A stretch of DNA of 36,746 bases from Nanobdellota archaeon (lineage in GTDB: Archaea > Nanobdellota > Nanobdellia > Pacearchaeales > GW2011-AR1). The number at the start of each line of letters is the position of its first letter. The stretch's first letter is position 1. A program made the position numbers and the translations under genes. The notes beneath the pieces are model-generated. The model made no database searches. It worked only from the letters and a program-made list of their open reading frames with translations, and was not told the origin of the DNA. Of this stretch, positions 23,838-29,261 are shown one piece after another. Where the stretch lies: NCBI GenBank assembly GCA_038045965.1, contig JBBSXD010000002.1, forward strand, positions 1 through 36,746, written 5' to 3'.

Positions 23838-25652
23838 CTATAAAGATATACTGAAATCTCCCAATTCTTTTCTTAAAATTTTAATAACTTCATCATCTAT
23901 AACTACCCTTCCTCCTCTATAATTAGAAAGAACTCCATTAAATTCGTTAACATCACTTTTTATAAATTTCCCATTTTCTATTTTACTAACATTCTGCTCT
24001 TCCACTAAAAAAGCAGGCTTAGTTAAAAATAATTCAGCATGTCTGTCTCCTTTATCATCTTTAAATGTTACAACAACTTTAGTTTTTTGCAATAATCCCA
24101 ATTCTTTTCTCTGAGCATATTCAGTAATATCTTGAATTAAATAAACACTTTCTTTTCTCAAACTTTCAAAATCATATTTACTAGGAACTTTCTTTCCTCC
24201 AAATTCTTTTTTCATAGATATAAGCTTGTTCAAAGTTTTGAGATATCTCGGATCTCCTTTCCCAGAATTAACTATTTCTTTCTCATAATTTTTAATTAAA
24301 ACCAACTCAGTATTTTTTCCAAACAAATTTTTCAATATATCAAAAACATTATCATAAATTTCCTTAAACAATTTCTCGGTCATTCTTTTTTCTAATTCTT
24401 CTCTTAACTGCTTAAGTCTGTCCAAATAATCTTGGTAATCTTTTAATAATTTATCTATTTCTTTTCCTGAAACCTCATTAACTTTCCCATGTTCAAATCC
24501 TTTATAATATTTAATTGCTATTTCATCTAATATATCCCAATATTTTTTCTCTAACAATTTTTCTTTATCCACAAAGATTCTTTTTACTTCAGCAACAGTT
24601 TCATAAACATTAGTTGGAGGAAGACCATAAAGCATTAATAAAGCTTGACTGGGAGTAATTATTCCCCAATAAATATCTCCAACAACAATATCTAACATCC
24701 TTCTTTTAACAATATCTTTAGTCTTATCTCCCATGCTCATAAACATATCTATAGATTCTGGACTAGGTCTTATCTTTCCCATTTTTAGCAATAATTTCCA
24801 AGGCAAAAATCCTCCTCTATCATAAATAGGAACTCCATCTCTCAAAAAAGTATAAAAAATAGGATTAGCATCTTTAACTCCTTCCCAAAATTCAGTAAGC
24901 AAATAGACTTGAGGAGATAATTTATTTTTAACTCCAGCTAACTCCCCAGCTTGCATAACATAACTATTTATTATATTTCTAAGTTTCTCTTTTAATTCAA
25001 GTCTAGGCATTCTTTTAACATCTGTATCATCAATTATAATATAAACATCCACATCGCTGGTTTGCAAAACTTCTCCTCTAACTAAACTTCCCCCAATAAC
25101 ATAACTATAAACATATTTCTCAAATTTTTTTAAAGCTAAACTTTTATGAATTTGTGCTACTCTCAAAGCTCCTAAAATACCTTTATCAAATAAAGGATAA
25201 GCCATTCCAATTGCTTCTATAATTTTATATTTGCTATCTAAACAGATATTCCACAAATCTATTTCTAAAAATATATTCAGCCATATCTTTAATTTATCCT
25301 CTTTAATTTTATTAAGAATATCAAGTTTAATTTCATTAAATTCTTTTTCCTTATCACTTGGTAAAATAACTACTAAGTGCATTAGTTTATCTTTTTTTTC
25401 TTCTTCTGTTAATTCATTTTCTTCATCAAACATATCTGCAGCTTGAGGAGGAATAATTCCTACAGCACTAACTTCTTTATGTTTTTTATTAATATATTTT
25501 TTTAAACTCTCAAGTTTTTCTCTAATCTTCTGCATTTCTTTGCTTTCAACAGAACCATTAACTTGAGGAATATCTGTTTTTTTCAACTCAGGATTTTGAT
25601 ATTTTTTATCTTCTAGCGAGCTTTCATCAGAATTATTTTGTCTTTCTTCCAT
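23838..25652 (-). CDS. Large pol-beta-type nucleotidyltransferase-domain protein with probable HEPN-like helical domain
   Basis: GGSLVRGEVLQTSDVDVYIIIDD; degenerate first NTase-like region; helical C-half with SQALLMLYG and YKGFEH. Confidence 0.8.
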   Translation of the reverse strand: MEERQNNSDESSLEDKKYQNPELKKTDIPQVNGSVESKEMQKIREKLESLKKYINKKHKEVSAVGIIPPQAADMFDEENELTEEEKKDKLMHLVVILPSDKEKEFNEIKLDILNKIKEDKLKIWLNIFLEIDLWNICLDSKYKIIEAIGMAYPLFDKGILGALRVAQIHKSLALKKFEKYVYSYVIGGSLVRGEVLQTSDVDVYIIIDDTDVKRMPRLELKEKLRNIINSYVMQAGELAGVKNKLSPQVYLLTEFWEGVKDANPIFYTFLRDGVPIYDRGGFLPWKLLLKMGKIRPSPESIDMFMSMGDKTKDIVKRRMLDIVVGDIYWGIITPSQALLMLYGLPPTNVYETVAEVKRIFVDKEKLLEKKYWDILDEIAIKYYKGFEHGKVNEVSGKEIDKLLKDYQDYLDRLKQLREELEKRMTEKLFKEIYDNVFDILKNLFGKNTELVLIKNYEKEIVNSGKGDPRYLKTLNKLISMKKEFGGKKVPSKYDFESLRKESVYLIQDITEYAQRKELGLLQKTKVVVTFKDDKGDRHAELFLTKPAFLVEEQNVSKIENGKFIKSDVNEFNGVLSNYRGGRVVIDDEVIKILRKELGDFSISL

Positions 25653-25694
25653 CCAATTATATAAAATCTTCGTTATATAAATCTTATTAATATT

Positions 25695-26804
25695 TCATTT
25701 AAAATTATTTGTAATATAATTGACTAACTTGCTTCCTATAACTTGAGTAGTTGCAGCTCCCACTCTAATATAAAACTCTTCATCTTTATAAAATCTTAGA
25801 AAAACGGGCTTTCTAGATTTCATACAATCTATTTTCATTATAGTTTTATCTTCTACTCTAATTAACTCAAAATGTAAATAAGGCAGATTTTCATTTCCTA
25901 TATATTCTTTAATTAAATTTGTAAAATGCAGATTAAATTTATCATTGCTCTGAAAATGATCTTTCTCGATTCCACATATAACTCCTTCATCCATAATTCC
26001 TATTAATAAAATTCCTCCCTCACTATTTAAAAAAGCAGCAATAGTTTTTAATACTGAATGTTCTATTTTTCTATCTTGCTCTCCAGTATGTAAATTAGTT
26101 CTAAGAGTTGATTTAAATTCCATTCTATCATTTTCTCCTTTTTTTATTAATTCTAGGACTTCTACAGGAGAATCAAATCTCTCAATAAATAAATTAGGAT
26201 TTTTAACTTTAAATCTTTTAATAAAATGTTTTAAAATTGGCAGATCATAATTTCTAAAATATCCTAAAGTTAAACTAGTAGCCAAAAAAGAACCTAAAAA
26301 AACAAATCCTAAACTTGCCATTGCATAATCATAATCTATTAATCTTATCTCGTAATCAAGATAAGTTTTAAGCAAAAATTTAACAAGTTCCGATAAAGCG
26401 CCAATACCCATTGAAGCACTTATTGCAATAATATAAATAAAAAAAGAATTAATTTTTATTCTGCTGTTTTTAGATATTATAAAAATAAATGCTAAACTAA
26501 AAAATCCTATAGCCAATCCAAAAAATAATTGGATTATAATTCCCTTTATATCTCCAAGAAAAAAAGATAATAACACAAAACCTAATAAAATAAATTCCAC
26601 CTCTCTCGGTAATTCTATATTATATTTAATTGCTATAGCCGGAACTAAAACAAGAACTAAAAGTAATAAATCTATAAACAAGACTCTCCACTGATGCGAA
26701 TAAATTGCATAAGCTATAGAAATCATCAAGATTATTCTTACTATATATGATAACGGCTTCTGAACTCTAGCAGCATTATTATAAATTATTTCTTCAAAGC
26801 TCAT
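25695..26804 (-). CDS. Multi-pass membrane protein fused to a C-terminal AlbA_2/Schlafen domain
   Basis: About six TM helices, then KGENDRMEFKS, IAAFLNSEGGILLIGIMD, FYIRVGAATT. Confidence 0.88.
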   Translation of the reverse strand: MSFEEIIYNNAARVQKPLSYIVRIILMISIAYAIYSHQWRVLFIDLLLLVLVLVPAIAIKYNIELPREVEFILLGFVLLSFFLGDIKGIIIQLFFGLAIGFFSLAFIFIISKNSRIKINSFFIYIIAISASMGIGALSELVKFLLKTYLDYEIRLIDYDYAMASLGFVFLGSFLATSLTLGYFRNYDLPILKHFIKRFKVKNPNLFIERFDSPVEVLELIKKGENDRMEFKSTLRTNLHTGEQDRKIEHSVLKTIAAFLNSEGGILLIGIMDEGVICGIEKDHFQSNDKFNLHFTNLIKEYIGNENLPYLHFELIRVEDKTIMKIDCMKSRKPVFLRFYKDEEFYIRVGAATTQVIGSKLVNYITNNFK

Positions 26805-26918
26805 AGGGACTCTTTTTTAACAAATTAACATATATTCAAAGCATTTAAGTTTTGTTGTAATCATTAGCATAAAAACAATTTCAGAAAGATTTAAAAAATC
26901 AAATTATCTTAAAAAAAA

Positions 26919-27074
26919 ATGAAGATAATAAAATGCGAAGAATGTGGTGAGAACTTTGAGACTATGCCTCATCCAAAATTTATCAGAAAATATTGTGATA
27001 AATGTAGTTTAGAAAGAAAAAAAGCTTATGAAGATATAGATAAAATCAAATTTGAAGATTGCGATGATGAATAA
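26919..27074 (+). CDS. 51-aa zinc-ribbon microprotein
   Basis: MKIIKCEECGENFETMPHPKFIRKYCDKC...KFEDCDDE; upstream GAAAGATTTAAA; stop abuts tRNA-Gly 3' end. Confidence 0.8.
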   Translation: MKIIKCEECGENFETMPHPKFIRKYCDKCSLERKKAYEDIDKIKFEDCDDE

Positions 27075-27145
27075 TGCGACATACGAGAATCGAACTCGTA
27101 TTCCATCGTTGGCAACGATGTGTTCTGCCACTAAACTAATGTCGC
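27075..27145 (-). tRNA. tRNA-Gly(GCC)
   Basis: GCGACAT/ATGTCGC, CATCG-TTGCCAA-CGATG, ACGAG-TTCGATT-CTCGT, A73. Confidence 0.97.
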
Positions 27146-27214
27146 TTGAATAACAATTTTAATAAACATCTCTTTATAAAATTAATTCCTTTTAATAAAT
27201 AATGAAACTCCCTA

Positions 27215-27535
27215 CTATCTTCTCTCTAATAATTTCTTAACTTTTTCTTGAGCAGAATCTGATAATTCACAGTAAACAATTCTTCCATCTTTTAACCTTC
27301 CAAACACTTGTCTATTAGGATTATAAGGCTCACCATATCCATCACCTAAAGATTCTTTAAAAGGACCATCGATAAAATCTTTATTTCTACAAAGAGAATT
27401 AAATTCTTCTTTCTCAAGAAGTTCAGCTTTTCCATCATTCTCTAGAACATATTGTCTACAATTCTTTCTAGGAGCCAACTCATCTTTTAATTTCTGAATT
27501 TCATTAATTTCAGATAAATTATATTCTAATCCCAT
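27215..27535 (-). CDS. Hypothetical protein
   Basis: 106-aa ORF with upstream TATTTAAA. Confidence 0.7.
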   Translation of the reverse strand: MGLEYNLSEINEIQKLKDELAPRKNCRQYVLENDGKAELLEKEEFNSLCRNKDFIDGPFKESLGDGYGEPYNPNRQVFGRLKDGRIVYCELSDSAQEKVKKLLERR

Positions 27536-27645
27536 AAGAAACTTTACTAAATTATATTTAAATACATTTATGTCACATAAAAACTACAATCAAATAATTC
27601 AATTTCATTCAAAAAAATAAATAAAAAAATAATTTATGTTAGAAA

Positions 27646-27849
27646 CTAGAATCTTGGATTAGGATTCTTTTTTCTGAAACAATCTCTACAGTAAACTGGT
27701 TTGCCTTCTGTAGGTTTAAAAGGAACTTCACATTCTTGCTTGCATTCATCGCAAACAGCTTTATGCATTTCTCTTGGACCAAAATTGCTTCTAAATCCAC
27801 GATTAAATCCGCCCGATCTATTACTTCTCTGGTTGTCAAATCTTCCCAT
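27646..27849 (-). CDS. CxxC-x17-CxxC zinc-finger protein with RG-rich N-terminus
   Basis: PREMHKAVCDECKQECEVPFKPTEGKPVYCRDCF; GGGAGG Shine-Dalgarno. Confidence 0.93.
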   Translation of the reverse strand: MGRFDNQRSNRSGGFNRGFRSNFGPREMHKAVCDECKQECEVPFKPTEGKPVYCRDCFRKKNPNPRF

Positions 27850-27857
27850 ATTATTTT

Positions 27858-27927
27858 CCTCCCGATATATTTAAATAACTACTTATTTCTCAGAGATAGA
27901 ATAAACTAGCTCTATCGATTTAAATAT
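27858..27927 (-). promoter_or_regulatory. Structured 5' leader with Shine-Dalgarno
   Basis: ATATTTAAAT/ATTTAAATAT outer stem, GATAGA/TCTATC inner stem; TATA-like box near 27950-27960. Confidence 0.45.
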
Positions 27928-28028
27928 TTATAAAAAGAGTTATACACTATTTTTAAACCTTTGTTTTTTCAAAAATTATGTTCTATGATTTTTTAATTAT
28001 TATAAACAAAATAAATAATATCAGATCA

Positions 28029-28074
28029 TAGTTCTAGGAAGTATCTAACTACAATCTACTTGGTGTAAACAAGT
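28029..28074 (-). pseudogene. tRNA-Val(TAC) relic A: intact anticodon arm, decayed T arm
   Basis: ACTTG-TTTACAC-CAAGT, AGAT, TGTAG-TTAGATA-CTTCC. Confidence 0.6.
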
Positions 28075-28145
28075 ATAAAATTATTGTTCTTTTTTTATTA
28101 AACACTTTTTATGACACCTTATTTGCTCTAAAATACCAGCAAAAA

Positions 28146-28186
28146 TCGACGATACCAGAATTGAACTGGTGAATACTCTGTGTAAA
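28146..28186 (-). pseudogene. tRNA-Val(TAC) relic B: 3' half starting at the anticodon loop
   Basis: TTTACAC-AGAGT-ATTC-ACCAG-TTCAATT-CTGGT-ATCGTCG-A; exact tRNA spacing and perfect T stem; no 5' half. Confidence 0.75.
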
Positions 28187-28209
28187 TAAGATTAATATTT
28201 TTGTTAATT

Positions 28210-28545
28210 CTAATCAATCTTTATTTTACTTATCTCTTCTTTAAGTTTTGATAAATCAATTTCAATTATGTTCCAAACTCTCTCCAAATTTAATCCAAAA
28301 TAAGCATGACTTAATATATCTCTAAATCCTGCTATGTCTTTCCAAACTATTCTCGGATATTTTTCCCTAAATGAGTCTGGTATATTTTTAACTGCTTCTC
28401 CAATTATCTCTAATTGTCTTATTATCGCGCTTTGTCTAAGATTATTTTTAAAAAACTTTTCCTTGTTTAGACCTCTCGAGAATTCTTCTATATTCCTTAT
28501 ACTTTTTGCTATATCCTCAATAAATAATCCAATGTCTCTCTTCAT
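28210..28545 (-). CDS. HepT-like (DUF86) HEPN ribonuclease toxin
   Basis: AIIRQLEIIGEA, WKDIAGFRDILSHAYF (RxxxxH). Confidence 0.93.
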   Translation of the reverse strand: MKRDIGLFIEDIAKSIRNIEEFSRGLNKEKFFKNNLRQSAIIRQLEIIGEAVKNIPDSFREKYPRIVWKDIAGFRDILSHAYFGLNLERVWNIIEIDLSKLKEEISKIKID

Positions 28546-29015
28546 ATTATTCTTACCTCTTCATTTAAGATTCTTTCCTTTATTCTGGGTTTTATAGCGT
28601 TATATTCAACTAAATCTACTTTTCTTTTTAATAATCCCTCTAATAATCTGATTAATCCTATAAAACCAAGCAAGCTCATAGTATTATCCTTAATTTCAAC
28701 AGCTATATCGATGTCGCTACTTTTATTTTGTTCACCTCTTGAATAGCTGCCAAATACCCCTGCTCTGACAACTTTGTTTTTCCTTAAGGTTCCTACTATC
28801 TTAGATTTAATCTTCTCTATTTCTTTATTTGTTTTTTTTATCTTTTTAGATAACAACTTTTCATCAGCCATTTTCTCTTTTTTTAATAGTTCCAAACTTA
28901 ATAAATTATATCCAAGATATACCCTTTTTTTTGAGATCTTATTGCCATTTCTTATAGAGATAACTCTATAATAATATTTTTTATCATTAATATTTCTAAC
29001 TTCAGTATATGTCAT
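28542..29015 (-). CDS. MNT (MntA-like) antitoxin with extra N-terminal basic beta domain
   Basis: FGSYSRGEQNKSSDIDI, RKVDLV; ATGA overlap with HepT; start reassigned to MTYTEVR downstream of TATA. Confidence 0.9.
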   Translation of the reverse strand: MTYTEVRNINDKKYYYRVISIRNGNKISKKRVYLGYNLLSLELLKKEKMADEKLLSKKIKKTNKEIEKIKSKIVGTLRKNKVVRAGVFGSYSRGEQNKSSDIDIAVEIKDNTMSLLGFIGLIRLLEGLLKRKVDLVEYNAIKPRIKERILNEEVRII

Positions 29016-29025
29016 AATAATATTA

Positions 29026-29060
29026 TGTCTACATTCTTTATAAATCTTCATATGTAGACA
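29026..29060 (-). promoter_or_regulatory. TATA box flanked by a 9-bp inverted repeat (operator)
   Basis: TGTCTACAT (29026-29034) / ATGTAGACA (29052-29060) around TTTATAAA. Confidence 0.7.
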
Positions 29061-29084
29061 CAACAAAAAAATTTAAAATAAACA

Positions 29085-29155
29085 TGGGCGCACGAGGAGT
29101 CGAACCTCGAAGAGTTCGGTGTAAACGAACCAGTTTACCGCTAGCTTATGCGCCC
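29085..29155 (-). tRNA. tRNA-Val(TAC)
   Basis: GGGCGCA/TGCGCCC, GTTCG-TTTACAC-CGAAC, CGAGG-TTCGACT-CCTCG, A73. Confidence 0.96.
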
Positions 29156-29261
29156 ATTCTTTTTTATTAATTTTAATAATAAACTTATTATCAAGTATCA
29201 ATAACCTAAATTATTAAAAATCAGGACTTTTAAAACTTACCTCTTCTTAAATTTTTAAATG

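Follow-up and report, generated by a model that had tools for sequence, protein, structure and literature searches.

What brings an intact tRNA gene, a toxin-antitoxin pair and two fragments of differing tRNA genes into one co-oriented row of an archaeal genome? The question is posed by positions 28029 to 29156 of the window, by which we mean the whole 36,746-nt stretch of DNA analyzed (contig JBBSXD010000002.1 of the Nanobdellota archaeon assembly GCA_038045965.1). The genome to which it belongs, here called G000 (other genomes likewise carry G-numbers, contigs C-numbers and fetched loci L-numbers), measures 0.72 Mb (717 kb), has a G+C content of ~25% and is rated 96% complete. A preliminary description of the stretch proposed that cassettes repeatedly arrive with a whole foreign tRNA-Val that displaces the resident one. 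Our analysis agrees that cassettes reached the tRNA-Val gene repeatedly but points to another unit of exchange. We conclude that the stretch is probably the head of an integrase-less cassette array at tRNA-Val(UAC), built by site-specific recombination, with the MNT-HepT toxin-antitoxin pair in its first unit.

An intact tRNA-Val gene and two displaced 3′ halves

The head tRNA-Val gene, an inverted repeat, MNT, HepT and two tRNA relics, termed B and A, all lie on the minus strand, the tRNA and both relics falling within 1.1 kb. The features are as follows:

29084-29156, minus: intact tRNA-Val(UAC), the putative array head (ARAGORN; Rfam tRNA, 53.6 bits)
29119-29125, minus: anticodon loop TTTACAC of the head, the proposed recombination core
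29084-29118, minus: 3′ half of the head, in the same homology block as MNT-HepT
29023-29034 and 29052-29063, minus: arms of a 12-nt inverted repeat (92% complementary) that boxes TTTATAAA at 29037-29044, upstream of MNT
28542-29015, minus: MNT, a predicted MntA-type nucleotidyltransferase antitoxin of 157 aa (PF18765, 1.2e-15; PF01909, 3.3e-15)
28210-28545, minus: HepT, a predicted HEPN RNase toxin of 111 aa (PF01934, 7.8e-29), overlapping MNT by 4 nt
28187-28209, minus: left arm of type B, the 23 nt from the HepT stop codon to the relic B loop
28146-28186, minus: relic B, an orphan tRNA-Val 3′ half from loop to discriminator A, followed by TTTTT at 28141-28145
28070-28145, minus: 76-nt "empty" unit, composed of a right arm and a type A left arm
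28029-28069, minus: relic A, a TTTACAC loop (28063-28069) with a decayed 3′ half

Relic B and the 76-nt spacer together make up a 117-bp unit without a gene. ARAGORN, Rfam, Pfam and reading of the sequence bore out the preliminary description in that the features are co-oriented, that the intact tRNA-Val, relic B and relic A have the loop TTTACAC in common, and that the stems differ in all three. From its loop onwards, relic B reads TTTACAC, AGAGT, ATTC, a perfect T arm (ACCAG/TTCAATT/CTGGT), ATCGTCG, A and a T run. The loop of relic A sits in a perfect ACTTG/CAAGT stem, and the decayed remainder of this relic extends to 28029. The earlier statement that the relic stems still base-pair thus holds for the anticodon stem of relic A and the T arm of relic B, but not for the supposed T stem of relic A (TGTAG/CTTCC), which pairs at three of five positions. 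Nor does relic B have a 5′ anticodon strand: its left flank pairs at three of five positions.

A chance origin of the relics was ruled out by counts of TTTACAC and T arms and by a shuffle test. The loop sequence occurs 66 times on the two strands of G000; only in the tRNA and in relic B is it followed by a perfect T arm at tRNA distance, and only in the tRNA, in relic A and at one all-A/T site is it flanked by a perfect 5-bp stem. G000 has 26 perfect T arms whose loop is of the TTCRANY type; 25 belong to tRNAs, and the sole orphan is relic B. When the 34 nt past the loop of relic A were compared in register with real tRNA-Val 3′ halves, the best score was 23/34 and the mean 18.0/34, as against 11.7 and 8.05 for shuffled relic A. 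None of 2000 shuffles reached the observed values, and the other 63 TTTACAC sites of G000 scored at most 14/34 against tRNA-Val 3′ halves. Relic A thus does surpass shuffled sequence, as the preliminary description required. Relic A differs from the consensus at 13 positions, nine of them changes from G or C to A or T. In truncated mode, the Rfam tRNA model aligned in register with relic B at model positions 29-71, if weakly (12.5 bits, E = 1.6), and gave no match to relic A.

Relic B has close counterparts elsewhere. It is identical at 28 of 33 positions to the orphans of G048:C3 and G050:C59 and at 27 of 33 to the intact tRNA-Val of G005 and G024, whose variable loop and T arm are the same as its own; its odd AGAGT strand and TTCAATT loop are found also in the G048:C3 orphan. 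Both relics are genuine remnants of tRNA-Val, from different alleles. They start at the same nucleotide, at TTTACAC, on the strand of the head, so that an intact tRNA and co-oriented, displaced 3′ fragments are present together. No 5′ relic was found near relic A or B in the window sequence.

Joints, arms and proposed exchange units in related genomes

Our comparison covered 49 genomes of the genus and 146 genomes from other genera of the same order; the fetched loci yielded 95 well-formed tRNA-Val 3′ halves, of which 37 belong to intact tRNAs and 58 are orphan. Forty-one of the 49 genus genomes, and eight of the 146 others, have TTTACAC with a T loop behind it at the spacing of a tRNA. At least two such sites, and up to four, stand on one contig and strand in 13 of the genus genomes (counted from the tabulated sites). 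Nearly all orphan halves (54/58) have a left flank that is not tRNA sequence, and the remaining four are whole genes with a small defect. These left flanks, or arms, fall into families: one has 23 members in 13 genomes, another nine in seven genomes, and types A and B were recognized in addition, at a clustering threshold that none of 3000 random 34-mer pairs reached. The type B arm of the window clusters with two joints of G048:C3, with which it shares the same ..ATTAATCTTA end before TTTACAC. The type A arm stands beside TTTACAC in G013:C225 (86% identical) and G002:C82 (82%) and, by eye, in G024:C55 and G013:C198; in G108:C38, from another genus, the whole 76-nt spacer is kept together with the arm (by eye). 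In other genomes the type A arm is followed by different halves, or by none.

Homology blocks shared between genomes end 3-35 nt from the loops. A 2.7-kb block of three genes common to G059:C2 and G050:C59 (86.7% identity) ends 17 and 29 nt from the loops, with differing neighbors on either side. The MNT-HepT block of G000 is 74% identical to that of G013:C88, begins 12 nt 5′ of the head loop and stops 12 nt from both loops. Because orphans start at the loop and this block ends 12 nt from the loops, the exchanged unit would run from the loop through the 3′ half and the cargo to the left arm. The same two observations do not bear out the earlier proposal that each cassette carried a whole tRNA. 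Gene-less units like that of the window (117 bp) recur at 113-133 bp, measuring 114 bp in G023, 122 in G020, 133 in G047, 113 in G024:C55, and 128 and 114 in G108.

The joints are also found beyond the sequenced bins. The commonest arm and its loop, in an exact 27-nt form, were found in 92 metagenome stretches. Among 82 matches examined, 25 lead into a well-formed half and the others into several recurrent non-tRNA right flanks. In metagenome contigs, these joints have archaeal genes (TFIIB, PolB and Rpb2) on their flanks. The source of the window is probably an archaeon of DPANN type. A search of a viral contig collection with the joint patterns of the type A, type B and commonest arms returned no match. 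Eight public runs contain the stretch, all of them as short assembled contigs and none recorded as RNA; in four runs, the pieces break near 28050-28110 and show several joints of low support, from which we draw no inference. A joint of another kind was seen in G050:C202 (L033, ~3190, minus), at 3454 of L015 and at several metagenome loci, where an intact tRNA-Val 5′ half and loop is joined to a non-tRNA hairpin, AAAGTATATC..GATATACTTT; this hairpin right flank also stands after left arms elsewhere. Joints of this kind indicate that some insertions break the tRNA gene.

From this anatomy we infer the following course of events. A site-specific recombinase would cut within the 7-nt anticodon loop or next to it; together with its stem, this loop appears to resemble a tyrosine-recombinase core. 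The products would be stacked units, each made up of a 3′ tRNA half, a right arm, cargo and a left arm, and each ending at the next TTTACAC. Unit 1 of the window would carry MNT-HepT, and its 3′ half would complete the working tRNA; unit 2 would be the gene-less 117 bp of relic B and conserved arms; and relic A would be the oldest displaced half, decaying towards A+T. A unit landing on an orphan loop would need no fit to a tRNA. Since the T arm lies wholly within the exchanged piece, units from other hosts could bring in quite different stems.

Which enzyme might move such units? The 130 open reading frames (ORFs) of 14 arrays encode NYN proteins (6 loci), toxin-antitoxin pairs, methyltransferases, glycosyltransferases and others, but no integrase, and none stands beside these arrays either; nor did a scan of six window ORFs find one. 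In G000, PF00589 matches a single ORF, a Xer-like recombinase on another contig, and most relatives likewise have a single Xer-like protein. As G000 lacks a dedicated integrase, its units would be either stranded or moved in trans. Elsewhere, an integrase does adjoin the joints. In G005, a left arm followed by TTTACAC and a 3′ half lies 67 nt from the start of a gene for a 421-aa tyrosine recombinase (PF00589, 28.3 bits against a cut-off of 27.1), and G024 has a 90%-identical copy placed alike, with a different 3′ half. Homologues with 57-60% identity adjoin the commonest left arm at three of 79 metagenome loci; in L161 the start codon was counted to lie 68 nt from the loop, and the other two are placed alike by eye. 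No further integrase was found at the 79 loci, where the 150 largest of 192 ORFs of at least 150 aa were searched against Pfam and all 192 by BLAST. Homologues with 44-46% identity were located directly behind tRNA-Glu genes, and other integrases of ~440 aa (G020:C22, G055 and G047:C32) have no tRNA-Val half adjoining them.

Origin of the head tRNA and rival explanations

The T arm of the head (CGAGG, loop TTCRACT) is otherwise found within the genus on orphans only (best matches 17/21, three orphans), and it stands in intact genes of other genera. The 5′ half of the head agrees at 28 of 30 positions with G137, a member of another genus, and at 26 of 30 with G006; the corresponding values for the 3′ half, counted by hand, are 26/35 and 24/35. 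Deciding from the G137 and G006 scores which half of the head is foreign was attempted and given up, these scores on short sequences being unable to discriminate. Given a T arm that is confined to orphans in the genus and a 5′ half that is close to G006 and closer to G137, the comparison suggests a swap of the 3′ half as the economical reading, which sequences so short cannot prove. The poor fit of relic B and the closest match of the 5′ half in another genus mean that the whole head gene may instead be of foreign origin. In keeping with the preliminary description, relatives do not share one invariant tRNA-Val, since at least nine acceptor stems were distinguished by eye among the 25 intact genus genes listed.

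G006 shares the downstream neighbors of the head, a tRNA-Gly gene and a Schlafen/AlbA gene. It was considered as an "empty site" and rejected, because it has an NYN gene and because a stray TTTACAC follows its tRNA at 12 nt. When window positions 23841-29156 are set beside this locus (L035, G006:C45), the segment bounded by tRNA-Val and the Schlafen/AlbA_2 gene proves to be inverted between G000 and G006 with respect to a conserved gene of ~600 aa with a nucleotidyltransferase domain, a gene that adjoins the tRNA-Val region in several other genomes.

Several findings weigh against reading the stretch as an array of units that each bring a 3′ half. The ~420-aa integrase family occurs in only eight of the 49 genus genomes, and it was seen to adjoin only the commonest arm family and the arm of G005 and G024, not types A or B, the two found in the window. 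We observed no circular unit, no empty-site allele, no excision joint and no integration product; short contigs were all that the public runs gave, and most of the genomes compared are incomplete bins. G108 keeps the spacer and arm of the empty unit, but the half that precedes them differs, so that units are not always inherited whole. The fit between halves is also uneven. Relic B forms eight of 12 possible pairs with the 5′ half of the head, their stems being different, and six of 24 foreign heads do as well or better. Eight of 13 orphans with a head upstream fit that head poorly (7-10 pairs), while five fit it perfectly; accordingly, the fragment is cognate to the regenerated tRNA in 5/13 orphans of other genomes and not in the case of relic B. 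Poor fit of this kind, which simple serial displacement of 3′ halves does not predict, may stem from the import of units or from landing on orphan loops. Finally, G005:C3 (L012) and G024:C32 (L011), which have identical tRNA-Val genes in addition to their related integrases, share just 228 bp around the gene, ~125 nt upstream included, and their flanks beyond it are unrelated; G013:C88 has a decayed whole tRNA with MNT and HepT between direct repeats; and the best match of the head 5′ half lies in another genus, in G137. These last three observations hint that whole genes can move too. The G013:C88 locus (L016, 1250-2608) deserves a description of its own: its decayed whole tRNA-Val, MNT and HepT are homologous to those of the window, and the direct repeats around them are ~35-40 bp long (TTTTGGAAAAAGAATAGC...).

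Among the alternatives, whole-gene replacement survives best. Under this explanation, the arriving cassette brings a complete foreign tRNA-Val, and the resident gene, deprived of its 5′ half, persists as a 3′ relic. It draws on the G013:C88 cassette, on the whole gene and upstream sequence that G005 and G024 share inside unlike flanks, on the three alleles that differ in every stem, on the incomplete pairing of relic B with the head, and on the likeness of the head to a tRNA-Val of another genus, which includes the same D loop and a T loop of like type. The joints of a 5′ half and loop to non-tRNA sequence, as in G050:C202, can be counted in its favor, for insertions that destroy the gene would require a spare copy. 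We nonetheless regard it as unlikely to account for the stretch. The great majority of orphans begin at the loop behind non-tRNA arms, the BLAST match of G000 to G013:C88 begins 12 nt ahead of the loop and not at the 5′ end of the gene, and neither relic is accompanied by a 5′ relic. The 5′ half of the head is, moreover, almost as close to G006, which shares the tRNA-Gly and Schlafen/AlbA neighbors, and comparisons over 30 nt cannot settle ancestry.

Much less probable still is that the orphan halves are functional RNAs, either halves of a split tRNA or expressed decoys or substrates for HepT or viral anticodon nucleases, with the type A arm as a promoter. Relic B does keep a perfect T arm, the discriminator A and a T run, and the type A arm contains a TATA-like box, TTTAATAA, that on our reading ends ~25 nt before the loop, a promoter-like distance. 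The half behind this arm in G000 is decayed, however. In split tRNA genes of the Nanoarchaeum type, the 5′ half is encoded apart, by a gene whose strands are complementary to those of the 3′ half; a search of G000 for a matching 5′ half gave no partner for relic B: none of 15 loose candidates has a D arm, and one is the complement of relic B itself. The left flank of relic B is the arm common with G048 rather than a 5′ tRNA half. The preliminary description had named a split tRNA as one outcome that would undo its account, and on this point its account stands. An old tandem duplication of tRNA-Val, with extra copies decaying, no mobile element involved and MNT-HepT inserted independently, is scarcely credible in spite of the co-orientation of the copies on one strand and the A+T-biased decay of relic A, because local duplicates would resemble the head and the relics do not, both relics are cut at the same nucleotide, and the conservation of both left arms beside other halves in other genomes and genera contradicts it.

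Cargo, known systems and biological meaning

The MNT-HepT pair that the array reading places in unit 1 has the sequence features of a toxin-antitoxin system. As read from the translations, HepT contains R-D-I-L-S-H with a Tyr two residues on, and MNT contains GSYSRGE...DIDI. MNT matches the PDB sequences 1wot and MntA chains such as 5yep; HepT matched no PDB entry by sequence, and residues 1-70 of MNT, an N-terminal extension of ~70 aa, matched nothing in Pfam. Some HEPN toxins cut tRNA, and the preliminary description had accordingly linked HepT to the tRNA alleles, a link our data do not sustain, as the cargo of the arrays is diverse and nothing ties HepT to the alleles. A boxed motif of the TTTATAAA type, with letters changed, precedes the paralogous MNT-HepT pairs of G013:C88, G022:C56 and G000:C32, and the inverted repeat with its TATA-like box is probably the promoter and operator of the pair. 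The MNT extension and the inverted repeat (window 28806-29063) may constitute a repressor domain and its operator. An R-phi-xxx-H motif plus Tyr is described for HepT of type VII HepT/MntA pairs (PMC13000451). A defining feature of this class is that oligoAMPylation neutralizes the toxin. The window pair resembles these systems in having both domains, overlapping genes, R-phi-xxx-H with a nearby Tyr in HepT and GS...D.D in MNT (PMC13000451); it differs in that its MNT has the N-terminal extension, which belongs to no known family, and in that its activity is predicted from sequence. MNT-HepT is most likely selfish cargo that stabilizes the array. The most recurrent cargo by tRNA-Val halves is another gene, NYN (PF01936), at six of 14 genome loci (L020, L021, L025, L030, L032 and L035); six more NYN genes were seen among the 150 metagenome ORFs, two of them identical and in two overlapping loci.

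An architecture like that of the tRNA-Val array stands at other tRNAs of G000. On the minus strand of C32 (12300-14258, L178), tRNA-Glu(CTC) is followed by an NYN gene, a relic of the last ~12 nt of the tRNA and a second MNT-HepT pair with a similar boxed promoter. On C16 (27480-27900, L179), the final 20 nt of tRNA-Lys(CTT), from T loop to 3′ end, recur in two further exact copies behind the gene. The last two copies lie 121 bp from each other; the spacers are conserved, no unit has a gene, and a run of N interrupts the first unit. The crossover here would lie in the T loop, not in the anticodon loop. On the minus strand of C35 (12200-12464), the last 11 nt of the tRNA-Ser(TGA) 3′ end, GGGTGGCGGCG, are repeated 86 nt downstream. 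A simple T-arm scan also found, on C16, C25, C26, C28, C32 and C36, eight tRNA-like genes that ARAGORN had left uncalled, among them a tRNA-Val(GAC) on C36 near 4471, so the count of 23 tRNAs for G000 is an underestimate.

How do the arrays compare with known elements? According to the literature, the anticodon loop is the 7-bp overlap of archaeal tyrosine integrases and tandem integration is known in archaea (PMC8371274), a displaced tRNA fragment marks the island end (PMC4383910), and archaea commonly carry tRNA fragments that integration has left behind (PMC9897764). Like tRNA-targeting islands (PMC4383910; PMC8371274), the arrays combine a regenerated tRNA with a co-oriented 3′ fragment, tandem stacking, a proposed crossover at the 7-nt loop and an integrase beside some joints. 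Unlike them, the units are 0.11-5 kb in size and nearly always without an integrase, and many fragments (8/13) are non-cognate; for Islander to accept a tandem array, every member must have an integrase of its own (PMC4383910). The words "DPANN" and "Nanoarchaeota" do not occur in the review of archaeal tyrosine recombinases (PMC8371274). Literature searches, judged from titles and abstracts, gave no description of such arrays in DPANN archaea.

The cis-mobilizable elements (CIMEs) known, with site-specific accretion, from streptococci likewise have no integrase; they are bounded by att sites, stacked in tandem at a tRNA gene and thought to move when an integrase-bearing element joins them. 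CIMEs are bacterial, linked to conjugation, kilobases long and bounded by cognate repeats, whereas here the host is an archaeon, the gene-less units measure ~115-130 bp and the tRNA halves are heterologous. Integrons, too, have a fixed platform, dense, promoter-poor cassettes of one or two genes, toxin-antitoxin cassettes and a recombinase that lies outside the cassettes. The sites of the present arrays, however, are tRNA 3′ halves with arms instead of attC hairpins, no IntI-type integrase stands beside the 14 arrays, and the first unit supplies part of an essential gene, so that the resemblance is one of working only. We rate the arrays as a variant of tRNA-targeting islands, tandem arrays and cis-mobilizable elements.

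A wider reading, which we offer tentatively and hold to be possible rather than likely, is that the tRNA-Val gene acts as an integron-like platform on which a rare ~420-aa integrase, supplied in trans, shuffles integrase-less units, some as small as the gene-less ones of ~115-130 bp, among all TTTACAC loops of an array and from species to species. With the 3′ half of the only tRNA-Val(UAC) coming from the first unit, this essential tRNA would then evolve by swaps of the 3′ half and compensating changes in the 5′ half. Such a platform would explain both the variety of acceptor and T stems within one genus and the gathering of toxin-antitoxin and other conflict genes at tRNA-Val.

If the array reading is true, very small, host-dependent archaeal genomes keep a busy site of gene exchange at a single essential tRNA gene, where the units, most of which cannot move by themselves, are much shorter than classical islands. 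It would offer a route for fast stem change in an essential tRNA, and the left arm with TTTACAC would provide a sequence handle for the accessory and defense genes of these uncultured archaea.

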